Of a stretch of 29,452 bases of DNA, positions 3,214 through 28,185 are shown piece by piece. Below the pieces are notes generated by a model. That model did no database searches. It had not been told where the DNA came from and saw only the letters and a list, made by a program, of their open reading frames with translations. The position numbers were made by a program, and so were the translations under genes. Origin of the DNA: a virus (lineage: Duplodnaviria; Heunggongvirae; Uroviricota; Caudoviricetes); the IMG/VR virus record IMGVR_UViG_3300029517_000186; one strand, written 5' to 3'. Each line of letters begins with the position of its first letter. The stretch's first letter is position 1.

Positions 3214-3229
3214 AGAAATCTTAGTTTCA
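3214..3229. repeat. 16-bp junction palindrome (putative att-like site)
   Basis: AGAAATCTTAGTTTCA just downstream of gene 3239-3886. Confidence 0.6.
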
Positions 3230-3238
3230 ACTGCCTAT

Positions 3239-3886
3239 TTAAATATGACAATCAACAACTGTTACTACTGTGTCTTCGTCCAAACTATCAATAAATTCTT
3301 TAAATTCAGTTTCCCAATCTTTCTCTTCCTTTTCGTTAGAAACTATAGCCCACCAACCCATTTTGCCTTTTTCATGCCATTCTCCATTAGGAGCAATAAA
3401 TGCAAATGGTGTACTTTCTTTCCAGTCAATTTTATTCACATACGCTTCGTTTACCTGTTCTCCATCTAATGTCTTAATGTGCTTATTCCATCTTCCTCCA
3501 ACACTATACCAATCCCATTTTGAATTTGGATTGTATGTAGAAAGTAAATCCCCGTTTGGCTTAATCATGTCTTCACTAAAACGATCTTTCATATCTTCAT
3601 AACATTCATCGTCTGTCCAATTCATTTTCTTTGGAAATGTATTTTTAAGATAATTTATATGATTTTCGTTGCTACAACTTTCTTCATATGCCTTTGGATC
3701 TGATAAATATTTTGCATACAATCCATTTTTATAATCTTCAATTTCTTTTCTAATTTCAGCTATTGCCTGTTCTCTTGTATACTTAACATATGGAGCATAT
3801 TCAATATTTTCATCAAATGGAGCAAGCAACTCCTCAACTGATTTCCCGTTTTCTTTTGTAAATACTAATGTAATAAAATGTGACAT
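3239..3886 (-). CDS. Conserved phage-type protein of unknown function
   Basis: 215 aa; STYNPNSKWDWYSVGGRW, W.E.G.MGWW and terminal VVDCHI motifs of a phage hypothetical family recognised from memory; AAGGAGG SD. Confidence 0.85.
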   Translation of the reverse strand: MSHFITLVFTKENGKSVEELLAPFDENIEYAPYVKYTREQAIAEIRKEIEDYKNGLYAKYLSDPKAYEESCSNENHINYLKNTFPKKMNWTDDECYEDMKDRFSEDMIKPNGDLLSTYNPNSKWDWYSVGGRWNKHIKTLDGEQVNEAYVNKIDWKESTPFAFIAPNGEWHEKGKMGWWAIVSNEKEEKDWETEFKEFIDSLDEDTVVTVVDCHI

Positions 3887-3911
3887 AATTTATCCTCCTT
3901 TTCCTTTCTGT

Positions 3912-3927
3912 TGAAATGCGAATTTCA
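3912..3927. repeat. 16-bp junction palindrome (putative att-like site)
   Basis: TGAAATGCGAATTTCA; contains the TGA stop of the upstream remnant. Confidence 0.65.
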
Positions 3928-4401: not shown

Positions 4402-4752
4402 TTAAATACAATCGTCATCATCAGTAGCTTCAGCAACTCTGTTTTTAAATTCTATTAATGCATTTTCGCATCTTGAATCATCATTAATTGTACTAATTCC
4501 ACTTGTAATATATTCCCAACTGATTTCTGCATCAACTATTATACTGCGAACATAATTAGATATTTCTGGCGTATCGTTTAATGCTGCAAACAATCTATTG
4601 ATATTTGCTATAGCATTACCTGCTTCGCACTGATTAGCGAAACATCTATCAGAGCATTCAATTCTTTCTAGTGCCATGATCTCCTGTATAAGTTCTTCTT
4701 TTGATTTTTTGCTATAATCTGTTACTATTTTGTTGTAAATGAACTTTTTCAT
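4402..4752 (-). CDS. Hypothetical protein
   Basis: 116 aa, AAAGGAG SD, first gene after the promoter motif. Confidence 0.8.
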   Translation of the reverse strand: MKKFIYNKIVTDYSKKSKEELIQEIMALERIECSDRCFANQCEAGNAIANINRLFAALNDTPEISNYVRSIIVDAEISWEYITSGISTINDDSRCENALIEFKNRVAEATDDDDCI

Positions 4753-4787
4753 ATCTTTGTCTCCTTTAAATAAATTATTTAATGAAA

Positions 4788-4800
4788 ATATGACAGAAAA
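4788..4800 (-). promoter_or_regulatory. TTTTCTGTCATAT motif
   Basis: 21 nt upstream of AAGGAG. Confidence 0.7.
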
Positions 4801-4824
4801 ATAAAATTAATAAATTAACATATA

Positions 4825-5345: not shown

Positions 5346-6311
5346 CTATCTCTCTTCTAAATCAATATCATTATCTCTTTCTGGCTCAGTAACCTTTTGA
5401 ATAGCATCAAAATCTTTAAAACCCACAAGCTTATTTATACCTTCACATTCTATAAGGTGTTCTATATTCTTACATGAATTAATCCAGTCTAAAGAATTAA
5501 TATAATAAAATGGACGCTTTCTATCATAAGAAAAATAGGCACTCTGATAAAATTCATCTTCAGCTTCAAACTTATCATAATGCATTAATGATAAAATCAT
5601 CATTTGATATTCAGGCTCATTATTAATCTCAATAGCAGTCTCTTTATTTATAAAACCATCCATTATGGCATCCGGTATTTTTTCAATTTGAGAAATCTTA
5701 TAAATATCTTCAAAACCAACAGGTACTTTATCATATAAATCATATGGGAAATCCCATGTTGATGAATACCTTGTAAGACTTTTATTGTCATCTATAAAAT
5801 AATATTTATTTTCCGGAAAATAAGATATAGAATTAATGTCTAAATTGTTCTTAAAATTTTCTAAAAATATCTGATATTCTAACTCACTGTTTATTTCAAT
5901 TATTATTCTTGAATCTAAAAATAAGTCCTTTATAATATCTGATATCTGAAATTTTGGATTATCATTATCCCTATCCTTATATACAGAATGCTCTGCTAAT
6001 TCAGCTCCACCACTGTATTTATCAAACATATCAGCCCATATATCTTCTCTTAATGTTCCGGCTTTGTATTTATCCCAGTCGTTACATAATACTAAATCAC
6101 CATTATCATTTTCTACAAATAAAACGTCTTCTAATTCATCCCATTTTTCTTCAAGCTCAATATCCGTTTTAAGCTGGTCTAATACACTTTCCCATTTATC
6201 TGTTTTGTAATTGACATATATAAGTGCATCTTCAAAGTTTTTTGCTTTAGAATCCATCTGACATTTATGGGCTTTAATAAAATTATCCAGTCTTTCTGTA
6301 TCAATTATCAT
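5346..6311 (-). CDS. Modular paralog-family protein (domain A + 2x domain B)
   Basis: 321 aa; N-terminus shared with 6844-8523, repeats shared with 8568-9848; ends DIDLEER. Confidence 0.9.
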   Translation of the reverse strand: MIIDTERLDNFIKAHKCQMDSKAKNFEDALIYVNYKTDKWESVLDQLKTDIELEEKWDELEDVLFVENDNGDLVLCNDWDKYKAGTLREDIWADMFDKYSGGAELAEHSVYKDRDNDNPKFQISDIIKDLFLDSRIIIEINSELEYQIFLENFKNNLDINSISYFPENKYYFIDDNKSLTRYSSTWDFPYDLYDKVPVGFEDIYKISQIEKIPDAIMDGFINKETAIEINNEPEYQMMILSLMHYDKFEAEDEFYQSAYFSYDRKRPFYYINSLDWINSCKNIEHLIECEGINKLVGFKDFDAIQKVTEPERDNDIDLEER

Positions 6312-6843: not shown

Positions 6844-8523
6844 TTAATCTAAATCTATAACAGGTTCATCTTCCTGTTTATTATCTTGTTTATCCTTATC
6901 TATTAAATCAGAAAAATTATAGCAATGCTCTATGCAATGAACGCTATTTATATTATTAAAATTATGGTTTGCTTTAAGCCTACCAGAAATTCTGTCAATA
7001 TAGAAATATGGAAATCTTGAATTATAATGTATATAAACGGGTGCTTTTACATCTTTATTTTGTAGCTGGGATAAAAGTATATCAAGTTCTTCCTGTGAAT
7101 TTATCTTAATTGCGATATCACCATTACAAAAGTTTTTAATATAGGAGTTTGTAATTAACTTGCTTATATCCTCTGGTTTAAGATTTATCAAAGTATCAAG
7201 TTTAAATGCATCCCCATCAACATCTGCTGTAAGATAAGCTTCTCCTGATGCCGGATTCAATTTCTTATATGGAAATATTATTTTTAAACCTACTTCCTTT
7301 GCAGCTTCAACAGTTTCTTTTTCATAAGCTTCTGCTATATAAGAGTTATCCTTTGGAAGTCTGAAATATAATATTGATGTCATGTCCTCATCACATTCTT
7401 CTCCAGCCTCAAGTTTATGCTCTATATCTTCTCTTCCAATATATTCAGCCTGTGATAACAGGGCTTTTGTATTATGTTTTTCATTATTTGAAGGTATATC
7501 CAATTCTATATTCTTTTCTCCTATTTTATAATATTCATTCGGAATGTCTTTTACAATAAAACAACCACCTCTTCTACTTTTACCTTTATCTTTCTTATGC
7601 TGTTGGATTTCTTTTATTAAGTTATTGAGACTTATTGTGGAATATTTAACTTTTTCATTATATCCATCTTCGTATTTTTTTATAAAAAGGTTATCATTAT
7701 CCGTCTTATAAATTTCTGTTGTATCACTCCATATTTGGTCGCCATCATTAAACTCATAACCATACTCAGCTATTTTTTTATCCTTAAAACACATTGATTT
7801 ATATTTACTTTGTTCAAGGATTGTTGAAAAATCTGTATAAATCATAAATTGAAACTTAAATGGAATTGTCTTAAAGTTACTGCAAGTTATATCATTATTT
7901 TTAAACCAGTAAGGCTTATTTGAATTATATTCAGGAATAATCCCAGTATAAGAGAATCTAGCTATATTATAGGCTAATATATCTCTTTCTTCCTTATTAT
8001 CTATTACAAAGACAATTTTTTCATTCATATATTTTGACATAATATTATCGGGTATTCTTATTTCACCACTATCATATTTCTTCTTTAAATTCTGATTGTT
8101 AAGTATATTCATATAAGGAGTCTCTTTATTATTGTTCCTCTCTACTGTTTCATAATTAACATCTTCATATTCTGTACTATATGTAAACTCTGCTCCTTTA
8201 CTATGAAGATTAAACATATCTTTCCAGATTGGTTCTCTTGGTGTACCTGCTTCATATGAATATATCTTTTCATTTATCGTAAATTCATAAGGTCCAGCTA
8301 ATACTAAATCTCCATCCTTATTTTCAACAAATAACACATCCTCAAGTGCATCATAAGTTTTCTCAACTTCGATATCAGTCTGTAGCTGCTTGAATACGCT
8401 CTCGTATCTGTTTGTGGTAAAATCCGGATAAGTTACCTTATCTTCCAAGGTCTTCTCTTCGTTTATTATGTGGCAGCTATGTGTTTTTAAAAAATCTTCA
8501 ATTCTCTGAGTATCAATCAACAT
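6844..8523 (-). CDS. Modular paralog-family protein (domain A + B + unique region + B)
   Basis: 559 aa; MLIDTQRIEDFLKTH...LEDVLFVENKDGDLVL shared with 5346-6311; AAAGGAG SD. Confidence 0.9.
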   Translation of the reverse strand: MLIDTQRIEDFLKTHSCHIINEEKTLEDKVTYPDFTTNRYESVFKQLQTDIEVEKTYDALEDVLFVENKDGDLVLAGPYEFTINEKIYSYEAGTPREPIWKDMFNLHSKGAEFTYSTEYEDVNYETVERNNNKETPYMNILNNQNLKKKYDSGEIRIPDNIMSKYMNEKIVFVIDNKEERDILAYNIARFSYTGIIPEYNSNKPYWFKNNDITCSNFKTIPFKFQFMIYTDFSTILEQSKYKSMCFKDKKIAEYGYEFNDGDQIWSDTTEIYKTDNDNLFIKKYEDGYNEKVKYSTISLNNLIKEIQQHKKDKGKSRRGGCFIVKDIPNEYYKIGEKNIELDIPSNNEKHNTKALLSQAEYIGREDIEHKLEAGEECDEDMTSILYFRLPKDNSYIAEAYEKETVEAAKEVGLKIIFPYKKLNPASGEAYLTADVDGDAFKLDTLINLKPEDISKLITNSYIKNFCNGDIAIKINSQEELDILLSQLQNKDVKAPVYIHYNSRFPYFYIDRISGRLKANHNFNNINSVHCIEHCYNFSDLIDKDKQDNKQEDEPVIDLD

Positions 8524-8567: not shown

Positions 8568-9848
8568 TTATATATATTGTTTGTCTTCAGTTATTCTCTG
8601 AATATTATCCCAATCATTAAATTCTACAAACTGCTTTATGTTATCTATTTCAGCAATATCTTCCATATACTGTTTATCATCAACTTTATTCACCGTATTA
8701 ATACAATAAAATGGATGCTTTTTGTGATAAAAAGGATAATCTTTAAGAATGATTGTAAATTTACCTGAACCATATAATGTCAAAAATAACATATACTGTT
8801 CCAGTTTACTATTAACCTGAATAGCAATCTCTTTATTTATAAACATATTTATAATAACATCCGGTATTTTTTTAATTTGAGAAATTTCGTATATTTCTTC
8901 TAAATTAAGCTCTAATTTATCATCTAAATCAGGCTCCAATATTGCTGTTGAATATCTTGTGAGATTGTTACCACCATTGTCTGCTAAATAATAAGTATAT
9001 TCAGACTTATACGATAAAGATATTAATTTCATATCGTTTTTAAAATTCTCCAAAAATATCTGATGCTCACGTTCATTATTTATCCTAATTATAATTTTAG
9101 AATCTAAAAATAAATCCTTTATGATATCTGGAATCTTAAGCTTTGACTTTTCATTATCCTTTTTAGCTGATATACTTTTTTCTTTAGATAGCTTATTAAG
9201 ATCTCTTATATCTATTTCTAAGCTTTTTAAATTATCCAAGAATTCTGTTATATATCTTACTTCTACAGTATCACTGCTAAGAACAGTCTTAGGATCTTCC
9301 AGTGTTATGTTGCCGTAATTTCTTGCAAATTCAAATGCTGCATCTATATCTGAATATTTTAATTCCTTTAAATGTGCTATATATTTACAGATATTTGTGA
9401 AATTATCTCTTATGACCTTTTTATATTCATTGTTCGTAAGATTAAGTACTGGCTTTTTATATGTAACTTCTACATTTTTTACAAAGCTGTTCTTCTTTAA
9501 AATTTCAGTGATTTCTTCAACATCACTATCTTTCATATATCCTGTAAATTCTGCCGGATGCATATATACATTAAATAATGCTTCGGGATTAAGACATATA
9601 TTATTTCTTAAACTGTCTTTACTTACAAGCCTTAATTCATCACAGACACCATAAGTTCTTGAAAAATCAACCAGATATCCGGCTATTGCAAGTTCTGGAT
9701 ATAACTCTCTTTCAAATGCAGTTTTATCAACCAGATATCCTGTTCCATAAGCATATACTCCTTCAATACCTATTCTTACTTTCTTGTATTCACTGTATAA
9801 ACATTCTGGGGCAATGCTGCTAAAGTTCCATGTAAATTTCTCTGCCAT
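8568..9848 (-). CDS. Modular paralog-family protein (unique N-terminus + 2x domain B)
   Basis: 426 aa; IPDIIKDLFLDSKIIIRINN...QIFLENFKN nearly identical to the segment in 5346-6311. Confidence 0.9.
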   Translation of the reverse strand: MAEKFTWNFSSIAPECLYSEYKKVRIGIEGVYAYGTGYLVDKTAFERELYPELAIAGYLVDFSRTYGVCDELRLVSKDSLRNNICLNPEALFNVYMHPAEFTGYMKDSDVEEITEILKKNSFVKNVEVTYKKPVLNLTNNEYKKVIRDNFTNICKYIAHLKELKYSDIDAAFEFARNYGNITLEDPKTVLSSDTVEVRYITEFLDNLKSLEIDIRDLNKLSKEKSISAKKDNEKSKLKIPDIIKDLFLDSKIIIRINNEREHQIFLENFKNDMKLISLSYKSEYTYYLADNGGNNLTRYSTAILEPDLDDKLELNLEEIYEISQIKKIPDVIINMFINKEIAIQVNSKLEQYMLFLTLYGSGKFTIILKDYPFYHKKHPFYCINTVNKVDDKQYMEDIAEIDNIKQFVEFNDWDNIQRITEDKQYI

Positions 9849-9883
9849 ATATATTTTCTCCTTTATAAAATGATTTGAAATAA

Positions 9884-9896
9884 ATATGACAGAAAA
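9884..9896 (-). promoter_or_regulatory. TTTTCTGTCATAT motif
   Basis: 20 nt upstream of AAGGAG of gene 8568-9848. Confidence 0.7.
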
Positions 9897-9897
9897 T

Positions 9898-9930
9898 AAA
9901 AAAGCACCGGCTACAAATGTAACCGGTGTT
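9898..9930 (-). terminator. Intrinsic terminator adjacent to the motif
   Basis: Minus strand ACACCGGTTAC-ATTT-GTAGCCGGTGC followed by T6. Confidence 0.8.
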
Positions 9931-11681: not shown

Positions 11682-12245
11682 TTATTCTTTAGCCAGATTC
11701 TTATAGAATTCAACTGTCATAAGTTCTTCTCTTAGCTCATCATACATTTTATGCAATCTGGGATTTACATAAGACATCCAGAGCTTCCTATCATCTTTAG
11801 CCATAGCGGTTCTGACCATTGTAGCAGAGATAGGCATATCATAGCGGTTCATAATAAGTTCTGCTGTATTAGCAAGGTCTTTCTTATCAAACCAATTGCT
11901 TCGGGATTCATCATTTCCATAAATCATTATTTCAGGATTCTTATGAATGTATCTGTCAGTATTATTAAGTAAGTATCTGCCCCATTCCGGGCGGATATCA
12001 TTTTCATCTGTTAAATCAGCTAAACCATAAATCATCACTTCCGGTCTATCGCCATATATCTCTTTAAGAATCTTAGTCCTTGTATTAATATTAAAAGGAT
12101 TTCGCTCTGTACCACATTCCTGTGCAGAACCTATCAATATCAATAACCGGTCACACAACAATAATCCTGTATCTACAAGGCGTTCATGTCCTTTATGAAA
12201 TGTCTGAAATCGTCCACATATTAAACCTGTATCATAAACTTTCAT
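11682..12245 (-). CDS. Nicotinamide-nucleotide adenylyltransferase (NadM-like, HIGH-motif nucleotidyltransferase)
   Basis: GRFQTFHKGH (HxGH), IGSAQ...RNPF and ISATMVR motifs. Confidence 0.88.
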   Translation of the reverse strand: MKVYDTGLICGRFQTFHKGHERLVDTGLLLCDRLLILIGSAQECGTERNPFNINTRTKILKEIYGDRPEVMIYGLADLTDENDIRPEWGRYLLNNTDRYIHKNPEIMIYGNDESRSNWFDKKDLANTAELIMNRYDMPISATMVRTAMAKDDRKLWMSYVNPRLHKMYDELREELMTVEFYKNLAKE

Positions 12246-14106: not shown

Positions 14107-14298
14107 TTATTCCCTTTCGTTAATTACTACTCTATTATTCCATGTATTAATTATCTTTTCTTTATCAAAACTATTGTCAGTCATAATACAACAGTCGTCA
14201 CAATATATATAATATCCTTCCTGATTATCATATATCATTGTTGCATGTCCACCACAAAAAGGGCAGGATTTAAGTTTAATGTTAATTTCACTTTCCAT
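14107..14298 (-). CDS. Lar-family restriction-alleviation-like zinc-ribbon protein
   Basis: LKSCPFCGG...YIYC..C...WNNR signature. Confidence 0.8.
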   Translation of the reverse strand: MESEINIKLKSCPFCGGHATMIYDNQEGYYIYCDDCCIMTDNSFDKEKIINTWNNRVVINERE

Positions 14299-14564: not shown

Positions 14565-14610
14565 ACATTTCTCCTTTATATCCTTTTTAACTAAACAGTA
14601 AATTTCCGTT

Positions 14611-14796
14611 TCATCTTTTCTTAAATTTTTTATGTTCTTCTATCAATTCTTCTAAAATATCCAATGGAACAATATTTTTTAAATCATCAACATAAACTCT
14701 TATATGTTCAAACTTTCCATTCAGATAATTGTATCCACACTCAATACATGTTCCACAATTAAAGCCTAGTTTATTTTTACATATCGGACATTCCAT
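14611..14796 (-). CDS. Zinc-ribbon small protein
   Basis: MECPIC...CIECGY; start moved to ATG 14796 behind TAGGAG. Confidence 0.75.
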   Translation of the reverse strand: MECPICKNKLGFNCGTCIECGYNYLNGKFEHIRVYVDDLKNIVPLDILEELIEEHKKFKKR

Positions 14797-14810
14797 TTTA
14801 TCACTCCTAT

Positions 14811-15041
14811 CTAATTTAATTCCTGTTTGCATTCTTCTAACAAATCATCTACTGCTAATCCATCTGTGTTTCTCCACCATAACAGTAAATTATCGTCTTG
14901 TGTATTTACTTCTGCCAAAGCATCATCAAGCATTGGGATGTTTTCATTATCACTTTGCATATCCTGTACAAATGCTTCTTTTGAAGTCCATTCATATTCT
15001 ACATACTTATCGTCACAATTGATAATAACTATATTAAGCAT
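14811..15041 (-). CDS. Hypothetical protein
   Basis: 76 aa, AAAGGA SD. Confidence 0.75.
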   Translation of the reverse strand: MLNIVIINCDDKYVEYEWTSKEAFVQDMQSDNENIPMLDDALAEVNTQDDNLLLWWRNTDGLAVDDLLEECKQELN

Positions 15042-15129
15042 AATATTTTTCCTTTCTGTTTTAATCTTTTCTTATAGTTAAAGATTCAACTGAAACTCTT
15101 GTTTACTCATGCACCTGTAAATCCTCATT

Positions 15130-15345
15130 TCATTGTATCTCTTTTCCCATGTTAAAAATATGCATTTTTCCATCTTCACTCACATATTCGTCACCATCTT
15201 TTGATATCTTTGTCCATTCAGACACTTTTTTGACTTCTTTTGTTCCATATTCCATATCAACATCTGCAATAAGTTCTGGCAATGTATCTGTAAAACCATA
15301 CCCACCATTTCCTGTATCTACTTCTATTCTAAATATATTATCCAT
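15130..15345 (-). CDS. Hypothetical protein
   Basis: Start at ATG 15345 behind GGAGGT; stop inside a junction palindrome. Confidence 0.75.
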   Translation of the reverse strand: MDNIFRIEVDTGNGGYGFTDTLPELIADVDMEYGTKEVKKVSEWTKISKDGDEYVSEDGKMHIFNMGKEIQ

Positions 15346-15401
15346 TTTTACCTCCATTCTAAAAGACTTGAAACACTTGTTTACTTATGCATACTTGTAA
15401 A

Positions 15402-15659
15402 TCATTGATTCATTTGTCTTATCAAGTTTGCATAGTATCTACCTATACCTCGTCCATTATCAAATTTCTGATATTTATGAAACTTAATCGGATTATCTTT
15501 AATCAATCTAATTATATTGTCAGGAAAATTATTTTTATTGGCAATTTCTATCATCTTTTCGTTTGCAAATTTCTCTGTACATGAACCGAAAGGGCAACCA
15601 ATAGGATTCACTCCCCATGATTTTTCTATAATATTGATAATTTCTGTAATATTCTTCAT
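15402..15659 (-). CDS. Hypothetical protein
   Basis: Start at ATG 15659 behind GGAG; stop inside a junction palindrome. Confidence 0.75.
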   Translation of the reverse strand: MKNITEIINIIEKSWGVNPIGCPFGSCTEKFANEKMIEIANKNNFPDNIIRLIKDNPIKFHKYQKFDNGRGIGRYYANLIRQMNQ

Positions 15660-15693
15660 TCTTATTATCTCCATTTTCTGTTGAAGCTCTTGT

Positions 15694-15885
15694 TTACTCA
15701 TCAAGAACACCTATCATAGATGGTATCTGGCACACTTTTAGCTCACCATCAAATAATTCTCTATGTTCTCTGGATTCAAAATATCTTTTTGCTTTATTAT
15801 AAGCATCTCTTTTTGAATCTGCTTTTACTTCAATCATTCTATCGTAGAATATTGCTATATAATTTCCATCTTTAATTCTTACCAT
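15694..15885 (-). CDS. Hypothetical protein
   Basis: 63 aa, AAGGAG SD; stop inside a junction palindrome. Confidence 0.75.
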   Translation of the reverse strand: MVRIKDGNYIAIFYDRMIEVKADSKRDAYNKAKRYFESREHRELFDGELKVCQIPSMIGVLDE

Positions 15886-15919
15886 ATCTCTCCTTATAAC
15901 AAATCCTGAGTATTGTAAA

Positions 15920-16180
15920 TCATTGTTTCATATCCAAATTTACTTTAATCATTTCCATTGCATTGCTTTTAATTTCATTACGCACTTTCTGTAATTCACC
16001 CCATGTTATGTTATCTTTCATGCAACAATCACCATAATTACAGTACATGTATTCTGTGACTGTATCAATAATACTCATAATTACTTCATCACTTGCTACA
16101 GTTCCAATTTTTCTCATAGGCTCATTTAATGACATCTTATAAATTTTATTATTTTCTATATGATAAAGTCCATTTTCCAT
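15920..16180 (-). CDS. Hypothetical protein
   Basis: 86 aa, TAGGAG SD; last codons (MKQ*) are encoded by the palindrome. Confidence 0.75.
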   Translation of the reverse strand: MENGLYHIENNKIYKMSLNEPMRKIGTVASDEVIMSIIDTVTEYMYCNYGDCCMKDNITWGELQKVRNEIKSNAMEMIKVNLDMKQ

Positions 16181-16190
16181 ATTTTTACTC

Positions 16191-16373
16191 CTATACTATC
16201 TCAAAATCTTCATCAAATGATTTCATATCCGTTTTATATCCGCATTTATTTTCATCAATAAGTATCATATTATCACCATGATTCATACATCTGTATTCCT
16301 TTCCTTTTAGAAAATTGCTAAAGCGGTTATCTTCCATTAATACTTTAACATCATGTTTTGCTTTTGCTTTCAT
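16191..16373 (-). CDS. Hypothetical protein
   Basis: 60 aa, AAGGAG SD. Confidence 0.75.
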   Translation of the reverse strand: MKAKAKHDVKVLMEDNRFSNFLKGKEYRCMNHGDNMILIDENKCGYKTDMKSFDEDFEIV

Positions 16374-16404
16374 ATGCTATTCTCCTTATTTTCTTCCTTT
16401 CTTA

Positions 16405-16869
16405 TCAGCCTGCTGTTACTTTTATCTTGCATCCATCCTTAAGCTTATATGTATAAGTGCGGTTGCCCTTTAAATCAATGCCTGTATACTCAAGCATATC
16501 TTCACATGCTTTAAAGAACTGTATAGGAAGAAACATATACCCATGTTTAATAATCTCAATTTCCTTATCAAACAGGCTTTCATAATGTTCGTCATCATTA
16601 ACCAGACTATCGTAAATGTCTCCATTATCAAAAATACTCTGGCTGAAAAATTTTCCTCCGGCTTCCTTACGCTCTCGTCTTTTAGCTTCAATATTCATTG
16701 TAATCTTTTCAATGACCTCTAAGGCTTCCATAAAATCATCAAGTTCGCCCTCATATAAACCTTCATCACTGATTTTTATACCTTTACTTATAAGGTATTT
16801 GCCCCATTCGCCATACCATTCGTTATTGCCAAAAATCTGTGTACCATTTACATTTGTTCTGTAACTCAT
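16405..16869 (-). CDS. Hypothetical protein
   Basis: Start at ATG 16869 (MSYRT) behind GAGG. Confidence 0.8.
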   Translation of the reverse strand: MSYRTNVNGTQIFGNNEWYGEWGKYLISKGIKISDEGLYEGELDDFMEALEVIEKITMNIEAKRRERKEAGGKFFSQSIFDNGDIYDSLVNDDEHYESLFDKEIEIIKHGYMFLPIQFFKACEDMLEYTGIDLKGNRTYTYKLKDGCKIKVTAG

Positions 16870-17086
16870 ATAGTTTTGTCCTCTCTTTACTTTTAATATC
16901 ATTTAGATGTTCCATCTGAAAATTCAACAAGAATTTTGGTTGGATATTTTATATGTATGAAATTATTCTATTTCTAAAATATCCTTTAATAAAGCCGTCT
17001 TTCTGAGTTTTTCTATTAATTCTTTTACATTATTATTTTTCTTTGTTCTCATTTAATGGCCTCCTTTAAAAAATTATTTAATTTAT

Positions 17087-17099
17087 ATATGACAGAAAA
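17087..17099 (-). promoter_or_regulatory. TTTTCTGTCATAT motif
   Basis: 20 nt upstream of AAGGAGG of a short 29-codon ORF starting at 17052. Confidence 0.7.
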
Positions 17100-17110
17100 A
17101 ACATTTATTT

Positions 17111-17119
17111 TGTTATAAT
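17111..17119 (+). promoter_or_regulatory. SigA-type extended -10 (TGnTATAAT) upstream of the putative ncRNA
   Basis: TGTTATAAT about 14 nt before the closing helix of the structured element. Confidence 0.55.
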
Positions 17120-17132
17120 ATCAAACAATATA

Positions 17133-17360
17133 GATAAAACTTTGAAGTTTTAAGTTACAAATTTATGGTTTGTTGGGATAAACCGATTTTTTGTGTCAAA
17201 AAAATATTATATTTCCTATCATACATATGGTGGATTATATTTCTCGTTTTTATGAAAGGCCGGGCTTTAATATGAACATGTAATCAAGCTATGCAGTTGA
17301 AGTTATATACTGAGTACAAAGCATAAGTAAATATCCTGGACCAAAGCTTCGAAGTGTATC
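17133..17360 (+). ncRNA. Unidentified structured RNA, copy 1
   Basis: Non-coding; 13-bp closing helix 17139-17151/17343-17355; 5' and 3' blocks homologous to 28263-28587; upstream -10 and downstream terminator. Confidence 0.6.
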
Positions 17361-17365
17361 CAAAT

Positions 17366-17404
17366 AAAAAATAAGGGATTAAATTAATCAATCCCTTATT
17401 TATT
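17366..17404. terminator. Bidirectional intrinsic terminator
   Basis: AATAAGGGATT/AATCCCTTATT stem between the convergent ncRNA and minus-strand operon. Confidence 0.75.
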
Positions 17405-17482
17405 CCTTATTATTTAATTATCTAAAATTTGCTTCGCAATTTTTTAAGTTTTTGTTATTCTATGCGATTATATTTCCAATTA

Positions 17483-17925
17483 CCAGTTACATCTATTTTT
17501 CCAAACCAATTACTTTCTAATTTCTTTTGGTATCCATGCAACCGTAAGATGTCTTGCATTTCGAGCATTTACATCGTTTCATTATTTCGTTATTATATTC
17601 GTAATAGCTTTACTAAATTTCTGACATAACTCTTGTCGATGTTCCTCGGAAATAAGTCCCATTTGTCTAGCAAAATCTAATGAACCTAAATACGAATAAT
17701 ACCACGCATTTTTTACTGACAGCACATGTGCTGATTCTATCCTTCGTAAGTACTCAGTTTTCATGGCTTCTAATAGTTCTTCAGCAGTCTTTGAAAGTTT
17801 TATATTATCCGTTATCGTTTTATCGTTTCTATCCTTTTTTAATTTCATTTATTTTTCCTCCTATTGAAACTGCCAGTTACATCTGTTTTTCTAAACCAAT
17901 TACTTTCTAATTTCCTTTGATATCC
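17483..17925. repeat. 53-bp direct repeat (17483-17535 and 17873-17925)
   Basis: 49/53 identical; flanks gene 17582-17848. Confidence 0.85.
17582..17848 (-). CDS. Hypothetical protein
   Basis: 88 aa, AGGAGG SD. Confidence 0.8.
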   Translation of the reverse strand: MKLKKDRNDKTITDNIKLSKTAEELLEAMKTEYLRRIESAHVLSVKNAWYYSYLGSLDFARQMGLISEEHRQELCQKFSKAITNIITK

Positions 17926-17949
17926 TTCCTAATAGTAAATTTCTGATTC

Positions 17950-18246
17950 CTATGCTTTCTTTCCAAAATAATATTTAACAATTTTCTTGAAATCTTTATT
18001 ACTTGCATAAGCAACTCTAGGCTTACTTCCATCAATATTAAATTCTGTTACGCTTAAAATTGCATATCCTTGTACCGTTAATGTGGCAAGATATACAAGT
18101 AAGTTCAATTTGTATCCAATACTGTCAAACTGGATTTCTTTTCTTAGTTTCTGTACTTCTTCATCATAATTATCATCTACTTCAATAATGTGTGCAGAAA
18201 AATATGTATTAACTTTATACAATTTATTGTTAATTTTTCTTACCAT
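17950..18246 (-). CDS. Hypothetical protein
   Basis: 98 aa ORF flanked by junction palindromes. Confidence 0.75.
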   Translation of the reverse strand: MVRKINNKLYKVNTYFSAHIIEVDDNYDEEVQKLRKEIQFDSIGYKLNLLVYLATLTVQGYAILSVTEFNIDGSKPRVAYASNKDFKKIVKYYFGKKA

Positions 18247-18279
18247 ATTATTTTCTCACTTTCTTAGTCAATCATCGTT

Positions 18280-18477
18280 TCATTGCTTAATAACATATAG
18301 CCAATCTTCAAAATTCTCATAGTCAATAAGCCTTCCATCCACTTCGATATAGTTTTCCTGTTCTGATTCTCTTACTACAGAAAAACCATCAAAGTTTCCA
18401 TATACTCTTACGCATTTACTATCAACTTTTTCAAATTTTATATTCCATGAAATCAATCTTCCTAATATATATGCCAT
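18280..18477 (-). CDS. Hypothetical protein
   Basis: 65 aa, AAAGGAG SD. Confidence 0.75.
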   Translation of the reverse strand: MAYILGRLISWNIKFEKVDSKCVRVYGNFDGFSVVRESEQENYIEVDGRLIDYENFEDWLYVIKQ

Positions 18478-18497
18478 AGTTTACACTCTCCTTTTAA

Positions 18498-18981
18498 TCT
18501 AAAGAAACTCTTGTCTACTCATGCATACCAGTAAATCATCATTTTGTTGTATTTAAAATTATTTCTGAAAAATATTTTCTCTGTTCTTCTAAAGAACCAT
18601 ACTGTTCCCAATCAAAATAATTCACATTTTTATCTGTTAAAATTTCTTGATTTGCAACTACTCTTAATCTGTGTTCTATTTCTTTAATAGTCGGAAATGA
18701 TTCTGTGTCATTATTGGTATAAAACAAATACATGTAACCTCTTGATTTTTTTATACCGCTTGTATTACCAATAATAATTGCTCTAAATCCAGCATCATTT
18801 TCAACTGTAATTTCTGACTCTCCAAGGTCATTATTCCATATGACATTGAAAAGTTTATATACTTCATTTTGCTTTAATTCCTTATATGCATTCTTTATCT
18901 TTCTTGCTAATTCTAAATAGGTCATATCTTTCCTCCAATCTTCTAAAGAAACTCTTGTCTACTCATGCATACCAGTAAATC
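18498..18981. repeat. Identical 40-bp direct repeat (18498-18537 and 18942-18981) flanking gene 18539-18925
   Basis: TCTAAAGAAACTCTTGTCTACTCATGCATACCAGTAAATC twice. Confidence 0.9.
18539..18925 (-). CDS. Hypothetical protein
   Basis: 128 aa, GGAGG SD. Confidence 0.8.
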   Translation of the reverse strand: MTYLELARKIKNAYKELKQNEVYKLFNVIWNNDLGESEITVENDAGFRAIIIGNTSGIKKSRGYMYLFYTNNDTESFPTIKEIEHRLRVVANQEILTDKNVNYFDWEQYGSLEEQRKYFSEIILNTTK

Positions 18982-18991
18982 GCCAATTCAT

Positions 18992-19189
18992 TTACTTTAA
19001 TTCAATTAACTCTGCTTCTTCGACATATTTCTTTGCTGCATTATATCCATTTCTATTAAGTTCACCTTCAATGCTAAACCAAAGTGAATCTAAAAAATTG
19101 GGAATAGATGCAAAATCTTTATTTGGATATTTTTCTCTATATCGCTTATATGCAATTTTATACAATTCATCTACTAAATCACGCTTCAT
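18992..19189 (-). CDS. Hypothetical protein
   Basis: 65 aa, AAAGGAG SD. Confidence 0.75.
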   Translation of the reverse strand: MKRDLVDELYKIAYKRYREKYPNKDFASIPNFLDSLWFSIEGELNRNGYNAAKKYVEEAELIELK

Positions 19190-19222
19190 TATATTTTCTC
19201 CTTTTACATTAAGAAATTCGTT

Positions 19223-19546
19223 TCATTCGGTTTCCAAAATCTGTCCAATAAGTTCCTCTAAGTTTTCACTATTCAGATATGGACGCTGTGGATTTCCATT
19301 CTTATCATATAATGTCGCAGAATATCTATCATTTTCATATTCGTATATGACATCAAATGACACGTTATCTGTTTCAACGAATGCATGTGGTTCACCATAT
19401 GTATTTTCATTACCTTGTAAAAATTGCAACTCAATTTCTAAACAATGTTCTTCCACCTCGTTTTCATACAAGTCATTTTCAAGAATAGCTTCTATTTCTG
19501 TTATTCGCAGTTCTTTCTCCTGATTTTCATTATATTCTAGTCGCAT
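19223..19546 (-). CDS. Acidic hypothetical protein
   Basis: 107 aa, GGAG SD. Confidence 0.8.
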   Translation of the reverse strand: MRLEYNENQEKELRITEIEAILENDLYENEVEEHCLEIELQFLQGNENTYGEPHAFVETDNVSFDVIYEYENDRYSATLYDKNGNPQRPYLNSENLEELIGQILETE

Positions 19547-19596
19547 ATAATCATCTCCATTCTTCTATAAATCATTGTTTCGTGTTATTTTTTTCT

Positions 19597-19788
19597 TTAC
19601 TCAATTGTGATATATATTCCGTCTCTTTTATCCCATGCGAAAATTCGAATATTTAATAACTCTTCCGGTAATTCAGATATATTACCTTTAAATAAGTCTT
19701 TATTTTTATTGGTAGAAACAATAATTAAATTTGCATGATTTTCTTTTCGATTATTTAATAATTCTTTTAGTGTTGGAGCTTTTTCCAT
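19597..19788 (-). CDS. Hypothetical protein
   Basis: GGAGG SD; start at ATG 19788 or TTG 19797. Confidence 0.7.
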   Translation of the reverse strand: MEKAPTLKELLNNRKENHANLIIVSTNKNKDLFKGNISELPEELLNIRIFAWDKRDGIYITIE

Positions 19789-19840
19789 AAATATCAATCC
19801 TCCATATTTTTATTATTATCCCGTTAAAATTCTTGATTAC

Positions 19841-20792: not shown

Positions 20793-20832
20793 ACATTATT
20801 TTATTTCTCCTTTATATTATTTACTATGAAAA

Positions 20833-20845
20833 ATATGACAGAAAA
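20833..20845 (-). promoter_or_regulatory. TTTTCTGTCATAT motif
   Basis: 20 nt upstream of AAGGAG. Confidence 0.7.
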
Positions 20846-20846
20846 T

Positions 20847-20883
20847 AAAAATATCTCACCCAATTAATTTTGGATGAGATATT
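20847..20883 (-). terminator. Intrinsic terminator adjacent to the motif
   Basis: AATATCTCA..CCAA/TTGG..TGAGATATT stem followed by a T-tract. Confidence 0.7.
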
Positions 20884-24113: not shown

Positions 24114-24147
24114 AAATTTGTTTCTCCTTTTCATTTTGATAATTTAT

Positions 24148-24160
24148 ATATGACAGAAAA
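24148..24160 (-). promoter_or_regulatory. TTTTCTGTCATAT motif
   Basis: 18 nt upstream of AAGGAG; preceded by the hairpin at 24163-24203 and a T-tract. Confidence 0.7.
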
Positions 24161-24338: not shown

Positions 24339-24408
24339 AAAAAAATCGGCTTATCCCACGAAGCTTTAAGCTTCGGGGTTTTGCCGATATTATTTGATAT
24401 TATAAAAT
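24339..24408 (-). terminator. Long terminator hairpin containing 58-bp repeat copy 2 (24351-24408)
   Basis: ATCGGC...CCC.CGAAGCT-TTA-AGCTTCG-GGG...GCCGAT stem followed by a T-tract on the minus strand. Confidence 0.7.
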
Positions 24409-24717: not shown

Positions 24718-24733
24718 AGAAATCATCATTTAA
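24718..24733. repeat. 16-bp junction palindrome
   Basis: AGAAATCATCATTTAA containing the TAA stop of 24730-24993. Confidence 0.55.
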
Positions 24734-24993
24734 TCAGCTAACGATAAAATATCATTTCTATCAAAGCCAATTAATTCATCAGATTCTATAATATCAGCCA
24801 ATATATTAACAATTTCTTTTTGTGCTTCAGAATCCCATTCCACAAGCTCCTCTTTTATAATCTTTGCACCATTTGATTTTGCAATATAATAATTTTCCAG
24901 TGTAGCAAAGAAAAATTCATATTGACTATCAAATGGTGGCATTTTACTATTCTTCATATCATTTAAATATTTTAATGTTTTTTTATTTTCCAT
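24730..24993 (-). CDS. Hypothetical protein
   Basis: 87 aa, GAGGT SD. Confidence 0.75.
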   Translation of the reverse strand: MENKKTLKYLNDMKNSKMPPFDSQYEFFFATLENYYIAKSNGAKIIKEELVEWDSEAQKEIVNILADIIESDELIGFDRNDILSLAD

Positions 24994-25003
24994 CTACATT
25001 ACC

Positions 25004-25204
25004 TCATTTCATCAATTCTTCAACTTCCTGCTTTATCATACTAATTTCCGATAAATCATACTGCCCAATCATTTTCTCTAATTCATCAGGTAGTCCAGTC
25101 ATTTGCGATAAATCCTCAATAGCTCTTTCCATATGTTCATAAGCAAGATCCAAATTATTCCATACTGACTGCAAATTATTTTGTGTTTTATTAATTTGGC
25201 TCAT
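25004..25204 (-). CDS. Hypothetical protein
   Basis: 66 aa helical acidic ORF. Confidence 0.7.
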   Translation of the reverse strand: MSQINKTQNNLQSVWNNLDLAYEHMERAIEDLSQMTGLPDELEKMIGQYDLSEISMIKQEVEELMK

Positions 25205-26560: not shown

Positions 26561-26998
26561 TTATTTAATATATTCCTTTACAACTTCTGATGCAATTTTA
26601 CTGTCTAACAATGCTCCAAACTTGAGCTTAAGTGATTTCATACATATTCCCATATTCTTTTCAATATGAGAGTCTAATAAATATTCAGCAATTTCCTGCT
26701 TTGATACAGACTTAGGTAAGAAATTATTTACAACTGCAATGCTTTCTGTAAGCTCTGAAAATCTCTTTGGATCACTCTCGTTTGTAATATATGAAAGAGT
26801 ATCCTCAAGCTGCTTTAATTCCTTTCTTGCTGCTCTTATTATATATTCATCAGCAATTACATCACATTTATTTTCTTTTGCATCTTTCTGAGCCTTGTCT
26901 AATATATTCTTGTATACAGAATAATTAATACTATTTCTTGTTTCAATCTTCTCCTTTAAAGAAATTTTAATATTGTTTCTTAAATCATCAATTAACAT
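26561..26998 (-). CDS. YqeY/GatB-domain protein
   Basis: 145 aa helical protein with KELKQ...FLPK...EI...MGICMK.LK...D.KIASEVVKE pattern. Confidence 0.8.
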   Translation of the reverse strand: MLIDDLRNNIKISLKEKIETRNSINYSVYKNILDKAQKDAKENKCDVIADEYIIRAARKELKQLEDTLSYITNESDPKRFSELTESIAVVNNFLPKSVSKQEIAEYLLDSHIEKNMGICMKSLKLKFGALLDSKIASEVVKEYIK

Positions 26999-28077: not shown

Positions 28078-28114
28078 TTTTATTTCCTTTCTTGTTTATA
28101 TTTTTCATTTATTA

Positions 28115-28185
28115 ATATGACAGAATAAAAAAATATTTAAATTTTTTATTCAGAAATTTAAATTGTTAAAGTTAATATGGCAGAA
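28115..28185 (-). promoter_or_regulatory. Tandem variant motifs TATTCTGTCATAT (28115-28127) and TTCTGCCATAT (28175-28185)
   Basis: First copy is 25 nt upstream of the AAGGA SD of the lipoprotein; second has TGTCAAA 24 nt upstream, as at 27036. Confidence 0.6.

Follow-up and report, generated by a model that had tools for sequence, protein, structure and literature searches.

Palindromic sites with six-base centres bound gene modules common to plasmid-type elements and SPbeta-like phages of Lachnospiraceae

The site array and its replicon

The 29,452-nucleotide stretch of DNA analysed here (the window; virus record IMGVR_UViG_3300029517_000186) carries about 70 mostly small minus-strand genes at a GC content of 25-33%. 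Between 14.6 and 19.8 kb, unrelated small genes are separated by short palindromic sites in which two arms flank a six-base centre. The original prediction, made from the sequence of the window, took these for the junctions of an integron-like cassette array. Our analysis indicates that they belong to an addressed exchange system that is real and well supported, and is not an integron. The original prediction missed that the centre is an address kept in fixed order in phages, and that the modules between the sites are common to phages.

All 20 main and four weaker palindromes that had been listed are present at their coordinates. The strict pattern proposed for them is enriched (46 strand-matches against 25.85 +/- 5.72, a number reached in none of 100 shuffles) but fits only 11 of the 20 main sites exactly, the other nine deviating from it. 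With a symmetric matrix trained on phage sites, which is mildly circular as its seeds were chosen with a window-trained matrix, 13 sites were found in 14.5-19.9 kb against 1.14 +/- 0.98 (maximum 4 in 200 shuffles), confirming the enrichment at this locus, and 12 in the rest of the window against 5.3 +/- 2.3 (maximum 12 in 40 shuffles). The weak copies (988, 2382, 17475 and 17566) are not supported, as none was listed at the score cut-offs used. At gene junctions an arm spacing of six bases gave nine matches, and other spacings from 2 to 12 gave at most three each. The predicted occupancy of consecutive junctions, 7/7 in 17.9-19.8 kb and 5/6 in 14.6-15.9 kb, was correct by manual check. Stop codons do overlap the sites, at 10 of them (one by a single base) rather than about 11, and four more sites abut a stop; site 15915, as predicted, encodes the MKQ-stop end of the 86-amino-acid (aa) gene at 15920-16180. 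The five-base arms were drawn slightly too short, as there is a weak extension at A -6 (0.89), T +6 (0.78), C -9 (0.42) and G +9 (0.72), and the Y-N4-R rule for the spacer holds in 13 of 18 phage centre classes and fails in the rest.

The window is treated as part of a large plasmid-type element because collinear alignments join it to G002 over 23.9 kb, to G004 over 22.7 kb and to G003 over 10.5 kb, and of these three G003 carries plasmid genes and none carries the portal or YonB-like families of phage G005 in a family search. G003, the complete relative, measures 244 kb and has direct repeats at its termini. A domain scan of 127 of its 137 open reading frames (ORFs) of >=170 aa found Rep3, ParA, an actin-like protein, a Mob_Pre relaxase, coupling proteins (T4SS-DNA_transf) and a VirB4-type ATPase (P-loop_TraG); it has the Rep, relaxase, coupling protein and VirB4, and lacks the virion genes, by which a conjugative plasmid is recognised. 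The Mob_Pre relaxase also occurs in G004. A leading-region role tied to the relaxase was rejected, the array lying >70 kb away from the relaxase in G003 and G004. Only four of 69 window ORFs passed the Pfam cut-off (cytidylyltransferase, Lar, YqeY and LRR_5). Named cluster members of the window proteins are Lachnospiraceae, and window proteins occur on contigs up to 0.83 Mb (0.67-0.83 Mb). PLSDB had no match to window 14.3-20.5 kb, nor any close relative when VirB4, RecA or relaxase was compared; INPHARED gave just two short matches, Rfam had no match in the window, and no tRNA was found.

The features of the window are listed below, all on the minus strand (-); sites are named by their centres, percentages are identity to phage loci, and lengths are in amino acids or base pairs (bp).

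3214..3927 (-): 215-aa gene (3239-3886, phrog_10079) between TTCGCA (3912) and CTAAGA (3214), which repeat the phage slot order TTCGCA then CTAAGA; the match to phage L145 stops at 3921
14598..14613 (-): site CGGAAA, overlapping the stop of the MECPICK gene; in relatives one left flank has 5 right flanks and one right flank has 4 left flanks, and G003 has about 1.37 kb between two CGATGA sites at the equivalent point
14611..15041 (-): small genes of 61 and 76 aa, not separated by a site; 14792-15048 is 88% like L100
15091..15132 (-): paired sites TGAGGA (15117) and CAAGAG (15091) with a 10-bp linker; joints at 15110-15117 in public-run contigs
15130..15345 (-): 71-aa gene, CAAGTG-to-TGAGGA module; 15117-15383 is 79% like L105
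15369..15412 (-): paired sites CAATGA (15397) and CAAGTG (15369) with a 12-bp linker
15402..15701 (-): small gene, CAAGAG-to-CAATGA module; 15395-15673 is 87-90% like L099 and L105
15682..15697 (-): site CAAGAG, followed by three different genes in relatives
15694..15885 (-): 63-aa gene common to phages; 15693-15931 is 91-94% like 10 phage loci, with sites at both ends
15915..15930 (-): site CAATGA, with four different right flanks in relatives
17051..17105 (-): AT-rich block head with TTTTCTGTCATAT (repeat families D1/D2), predicted promoter of the lower block; a putative terminator-like hairpin at 17369-17401
17478..17925 (-): 88-aa gene (17582-17848) between 58-bp direct repeats (D13), the upstream repeat holding degenerate site 17865; the unit is missing in G002 and run X4
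17935..18282 (-): 98-aa gene (17950-18246) between CGATGA (18267) and CAGAAA (17935), 89-96% from site to site in 14 phage loci, fitting the phage slot CGATGA to CGGAAA
18280..18477 (-): 65-aa gene, CAAGAG-to-CGATGA module; its place is taken by different genes, starting at site 18503, in G002 and elsewhere
18503..18546 (-): paired sites TGATGA (18531) and CAAGAG (18503) with a 12-bp linker (repeat D7); joints 14614>18505 and 17967>18498
18539..18925 (-): 128-aa gene between two CAAGAG direct repeats, filled in G002 and empty in L040
18947..18990 (-): paired sites TGGCGA (18975) and CAAGAG (18947) with a 12-bp linker that follows 10 left flanks
18992..19225 (-): 65-aa gene and degenerate site 19210; seven phage loci match 18989-19226 at 90-94%
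19223..19582 (-): 107-aa gene and site CAATGA (19567), with three left flanks in relatives; the family was not seen in the compared phage loci
19597..19840 (-): 63-aa gene and site CAAGAA (19825)
20797..20883 (-): block head and predicted upper-block promoter; a putative terminator-like hairpin lies upstream
24718..25023 (-): 87-aa gene whose end lies in site TGATGA (24718; phage class TGACGA); up to 98% like phage loci, the match ending in the site

Ordered addresses and exchange at the sites

The same arms and centres occur in the phage G005 and in its 80 relatives, SPbeta-like phages of Lachnospiraceae. G005, a temperate phage of 156 kb, carries portal, tail and DnaE genes as well as four that resemble tyrosine-recombinase genes. 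It resembles SPbeta in terminase (45%), YonO (23%), YorL (38%) and YorG (56%, a Sak4-like gene), and has the portal family; these protein comparisons establish kinship with SPbeta but not membership of its genus. Across 76 loci, ten centre classes followed one order in 1023/1023 pairs with no class repeated. In the 20 longer loci 23 classes were recognised, of which 18 lie upstream of the array-end recombinase gene and 5 downstream of it; again none was repeated, and 2647/2660 pairs kept the order, the 13 exceptions being one pair reversed by median ranking. Eight further phages, found without using the array-end gene, were concordant in 748/748 pairs, a real test of the order because classes and order were defined on earlier loci. 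Each centre class points in the same direction on the coding strand in all phage arrays, with no inversely oriented module-bounding sites among them. Recombination between same-centre sites cannot excise a phage module, since no centre recurs in phages.

Plasmid arrays, unlike those of phages, repeat centres, and CAAGAG has four copies in the window. A linker of 10-12 bp joins a gene-end site to a new CAAGAG site, so that the slot restarts; this linker resembles the flank preceding CAAGAG after the 16405-16902 gene in relatives. Compared manually with the phage classes, nine of the 20 window centres are identical, nine are one base off and two are further off. Two frequent variants, CAATGA and TGATGA, represent both CG transitions of CGATGA. 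Plasmid centres overall comprised 45 exact and 30 one-mismatch copies, and phage centres 446 exact and 31 one-mismatch; the heavier drift on plasmids would fit less frequent use there.

Exchange was followed in loci collected by pattern scans, of which 11 came from 5 contigs of viral collections and 38 from gut metagenomes. L045, L060, L067 and L072 were left out as duplicates of one contig, L029 was moved to the phage side, and L036 (the sole GTDB match, in an unrelated genome) and L033 (nothing in common with other loci) were dropped as chance matches; the plasmid-side set includes some metagenome loci not shown to be plasmids. The 335 site occurrences collapsed to 156 junctions, at which a single flank had up to 6 right or 10 left partners, with the switch at the site. 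Gene gain, loss and replacement between relatives thus break at the sites, as the original prediction expected. Neighbour diversity was higher for site-adjacent than for site-free gene families, both in phages (0.75 against 0.45; 61 and 94 families, p=1.5e-7) and on the plasmid side (0.45 against 0.26; 19 and 49 families, p=0.011). Identity between swapped partners stopped 14-20 bases into or just past the site in 246/379 and 242/296 phage pairs and in 21/29 and 14/19 plasmid-side pairs; at site-free junctions the ends were scattered in the same comparison. The identity amounted to only 14-15 AT-rich bases in 158/379 and 134/296 phage pairs.

Swap partners had a common centre in 376/422 (89%) and 318/408 (78%) pairs, against a background of 5.2% (439 phage junctions). 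The outer left arm mismatched in 13% and 8% of pairs with a shared left flank and in 57% and 34% of those without, and the right arm mirrored this. These alignments show that flanks switch at the site, mostly between same-centre sites, and that each arm travels with its own flank. Filled and empty versions of a junction had identical centres in 7/16 pairs on the plasmid side and 0/13 in phages, and in 13/13 phage pairs one whole centre was kept between unlike sites. Contigs assembled from public runs of five studies carried joints at or beside sites, for example 14614>18505, 17967>18498, 18981>15693 (in two studies) and 15673>15117; joint 17666>18929, and one end of some others, lay away from sites. 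Assembled contigs were the evidence for joints, and uncovered parts and small-share runs were not counted.

Phages and plasmids also have modules in common. Between 16 plasmid-lineage loci and the phage loci there were 233 distinct shared segments, whose ends fell at phage sites in 151/466 cases against 15.1 +/- 3.5 expected (maximum 29 in 500). Thirty segments were bounded by sites at both ends, all in slot order. G003 and G005 share 446 bp at 100% identity, exactly from a CAAGAG site to a TGAGGA site, and within the window matches to phage DNA run to a site on one side or on both in segments 15693-15931, 17935-18283, 15395-15673, 18989-19226 and 24718-25023. Site-bounded modules common to plasmid-type elements and SPbeta-like phages are shown at the level of sequence.

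In SPbeta itself, the gene junctions at 75-125 kb (L165) carry TAAAA-N6-TTTTA, with one more A per arm and varied centres (12 matches, against <=3 at other spacings). No six-base peak was seen in the stretches scanned of phages Sundance (84-134 kb) and LC76P1 (115-165 kb), despite their late-enzyme homologues. Sundance has, at 121-134 kb (L170), a repeated promoter-like unit ahead of many small early genes, with no six-base dyad peak.

Mechanism of exchange and candidate recombinases

On balance it is probable that the sites are crossover points with the six-base centre as address, and that a tyrosine recombinase of Xer type, coming from outside the plasmid, exchanges the modules. Strand exchange would be site-specific and take place inside the centre, because dyad arms are common to all classes, the centre is 6 bp long, the identity is short, and unlike-centre joins keep one whole site; a 6-bp centre between arms is the geometry of dif (PMC5357621). 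A first crossover at a matching address would join two co-resident replicons in a cointegrate, and a second at another address would resolve it, so that a module is replaced in register and not deleted. Such a double crossover, as modelled for pdif modules (PMC13141974), would by analogy explain the in-register replacement. The plasmid may have acquired a few addresses (mainly CAAGAG, TGAGGA, CGATGA and CGGAAA) and duplicated them in tandem, and with these same-centre repeats the units between them would also be lost or gained. Of the earlier interpretation, the crossover points for gain, loss and replacement and the tyrosine-recombinase geometry stand; the integron model falls.

Several observations weigh against crossover by an external Xer-type enzyme. 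Almost half of the shared segments (112/233) have neither end at a site, and site-free junctions also swap often in phages (diversity 0.45); sites are therefore enriched, not exclusive, crossover points. The swap counts are of pairs, not independent events, and among the assembled contigs no junction was identifiable as an excised circle or a cointegrate. No recombinase is tied to the sites, and their crossover role rests on comparative evidence; the search covered the window and G002-G004, not the window's full replicon, which leaves room for a recombinase in cis. An orthologue of the 346-aa array-end enzyme is present in 14/29 independently chosen records, and arrays are intact without it. 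The G005 late-region recombinase has an orthologue in 21/47 phages, and its position holds at least four types, 22-29% alike. Finally, the sites are unlike four predicted Firmicutes dif rows, none of them from Lachnospiraceae (PMC3025954), which weakens the option of host XerCD.

The absence of a recombinase from the window was confirmed by a Pfam scan of its 69 ORFs and by custom profiles; nor did Pfam or custom profiles find a tyrosine recombinase in the 244-kb G003 or in fragments G002 and G004. All 47 phage records have at least one. The array-end enzyme retains six catalytic residues in 47/47 variants; as driver it was rejected, being often missing with unrelated recombinase-fold genes in its place. 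At least three unrelated recombinase-fold proteins, possibly immunity types, occupy the array-end position (L268-L277; G058, G066, G072, G074, G075, G057 and G078). In SPbeta the repressor MrpR has a similar position (PMC10516654), and by this analogy the array-end position may be a repressor slot like that of MrpR/SroF (PMC10516654; 10.1101/2025.11.27.690993). A 339-aa recombinase was dismissed because it occurs in 4/80 loci only. The late-region recombinase is intact in 35/35 variants, and two late-region types are 29-32% like SPbeta YomM; the G005 type was rejected as sole driver, given its occurrence in 21/47 phages with other types at the same position. Arm base frequencies were equal across late-region types (9, 7, 3 and 1 phages), where constant exchange could blur a difference. 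With arms constant across enzyme types, the site reader may therefore lie outside the phage, or belong to a very divergent family with one specificity. The three-phage core (49/238 G005 ORFs) contained no conserved recombinase beyond a 23-24% integrase match (from sequence starts, unannotated). A host Xer-type enzyme is our tentative first choice as site reader, favoured over phage enzymes because the arms are unchanged when the phage recombinases change; the phage recombinase in the YomM position is an unlikely candidate, and the array-end recombinase a decidedly poor one.

Homologous or annealing recombination offers a different account, in which the sites bind a dimeric protein, are conserved for some other function, and 12-19 bp of same-centre identity serves as linker homology. 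It would explain the same-centre preference, the collinearity and the lack of a universal recombinase. G005 has the Sak4-like gene and G002 a RecA, and SPbeta/phi3T hybrids join mostly at homology (10.1101/2020.05.06.055103). The identity is nevertheless often just 14-15 AT-rich bases, unlike-centre joins keep one whole site (13/13) though only short arms are shared, and the Sak4 of G005 was not found in 4/4 other near-complete phages in a search without a positive control. Moreover, the sites are found where genes end, with the block heads about 1 kb or more upstream. We regard linker homology as rather doubtful.

An integron-like platform, in which an integrase of the window's own replicon excises and re-inserts single-gene circles, is improbable. 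The array looks the part, with co-oriented small genes lacking their own block-head repeat, stops inside the sites, the identical centres of 7/16 plasmid-side filled/empty pairs, and the go-back joints 18981>15693 and 15673>15117; the window's full replicon, as said, lies outside the recombinase search. Pfam and custom-profile searches nevertheless found no tyrosine recombinase in the complete G003 or in G002/G004, and the four G005 recombinases (three plus the integrase) scored 28-56 bits or had no match on the IntI model TIGR02249, whose cut-off is 265. An attC-like hairpin did not emerge either, as four paired sites folded no better than shuffles (z -1.17 to +1.00 in 7 folds). We identified no attI-like site; exchange occurs at many sites, and the block heads are only predicted promoters. 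Phage centres, ordered as addresses, never repeat and so permit no same-centre excision, and differences in gene order between relatives account for the go-back joints. The idea of a Tn916-like unit with an attL/attR pair was likewise rejected, its two apparent orientations being arm variants of one site.

That the sites are operators or RNA/DNA hairpin signals with no exchange role is very improbable: their dyad symmetry and the phage array ending in a recombinase-fold gene placed like the SPbeta repressor MrpR (PMC10516654) would suit it, but both flanks are replaced while site and centre persist, the two arms of one site pair less than independence predicts (0.41 against 0.54; T..A pairs 9/444, p=3e-14), Rfam is silent in the window, and identity ends at sites and site-bounded phage-plasmid segments contradict operator or RNA processing as the sole role, which the original prediction had left open.

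Known systems and biological meaning

The exchange system appears to work like the pdif modules of Acinetobacter Rep_3 plasmids, in which dif modules are recombined by XerC/XerD (PMC13141974 and PMC11705084). There, as here, accessory genes lie between two-armed sites with a 6-bp centre, recombination joins identical or near-identical centres (here on comparative evidence only), and the recombinase is off the plasmid; single-module replacement is modelled as cointegrate formation and resolution at a second pair. The present arms are near-symmetric, with about six strong bases, and are unlike the dif rows compared. The centres are co-oriented with the genes, with no alternating inverted sites or inversions seen. 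About 20 addresses stand in fixed order, and the system occurs in both phages and plasmids of Lachnospiraceae. The GAAAA/TTTTC-type core of the difSL arms, with its further outer dyad bases, resembles the GAAA/TTTC core of the sites here; the single-recombinase Xer systems XerS/difSL and XerH/difH have one site per chromosome beside the gene, serve dimer resolution, and differ in arm register from the sites here (PMC5357621). The phage enzymes score far below the XerS cut-off.

Other systems are alike in part. Integrons, with IntI, attI and attC, have arrays of co-oriented small genes, stops in the site and filled and empty variants. The likeness extends to precise gain and loss at sites; here, by contrast, neither IntI nor a folded attC was found and no single insertion site was identified, the centre acts as an address, and phage modules lie between unlike centres. 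Phage linker or boundary sequences and PeSL cassettes are short conserved intergenic elements where unrelated early genes swap. These are repeated homologies or promoter units, whereas the sites here have a dyad in common and a centre peculiar to each copy. In engineered recombinase-mediated cassette exchange with heterospecific lox or FRT sites, deletion in cis is prevented by unlike centres, which still permit in-register replacement in trans; the present system would be a natural version with about 20 addresses. No prior description of it was found in the open-licence PMC and bioRxiv literature.

Some further features of these elements were recorded. Gene blocks are headed by the repeated AT-rich element, which has TTTTCTGTCATAT on its coding strand, at 103-134, 2563-2617, 4752-4806, 9848-9902, 17051-17105, 20797-20851, 24129-24160 and 28090-28136; predicted to be a promoter or a regulator site, it is almost missing from 20 phage arrays. 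Positions 936-993 and 24351-24408 of the window, separated by 23.4 kb, hold the same 58-bp sequence with a palindrome inside it (D12); related palindromes lie near 17143 and 28262. The window encodes a cytidylyltransferase/NMNAT-like gene (11682-12245), a Lar-family restriction alleviation gene (14107-14298) and a YqeY-like gene (26561-26998), as well as paralogous domain-shuffled proteins of no known family (5346-6311, 6844-8523 and 8568-9848), inside which relatives break. G002 carries a full-length Cas9 of 1352 aa (L018:6150-10208) and, just outside the start of the window-homologous region, three tandem genes of ~69-bp (23-aa) repeats (L019:71-3400); G004 carries a PARP-domain protein (L024:6008-7294).

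The sites provide a testable rule for the exact-boundary swapping of unrelated small genes in large temperate phages. These swaps also involve plasmid-type elements from the same hosts. It is possible, if speculative, that the sites form a natural host-read exchange grid, in which about 20 ordered addresses make up the conserved skeleton of SPbeta-like gut phages that are mosaic elsewhere, have been captured and multiplied by giant conjugative plasmids, and are served by one recombinase that neither has to encode, so that accessory genes pass between the two one slot at a time. On the favoured reading of an Xer-type enzyme from outside the plasmid, phages and plasmids would have one addressed pool of accessory genes in common. 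Anti-defence and host-takeover functions are often found among phage early genes, and the address would allow uncharacterised early genes to be sorted and followed from phage to plasmid or back. If a single recombinase does read many mutually exclusive six-base centres on a short site, the system would be a ready multi-address exchange tool for gut Firmicutes.

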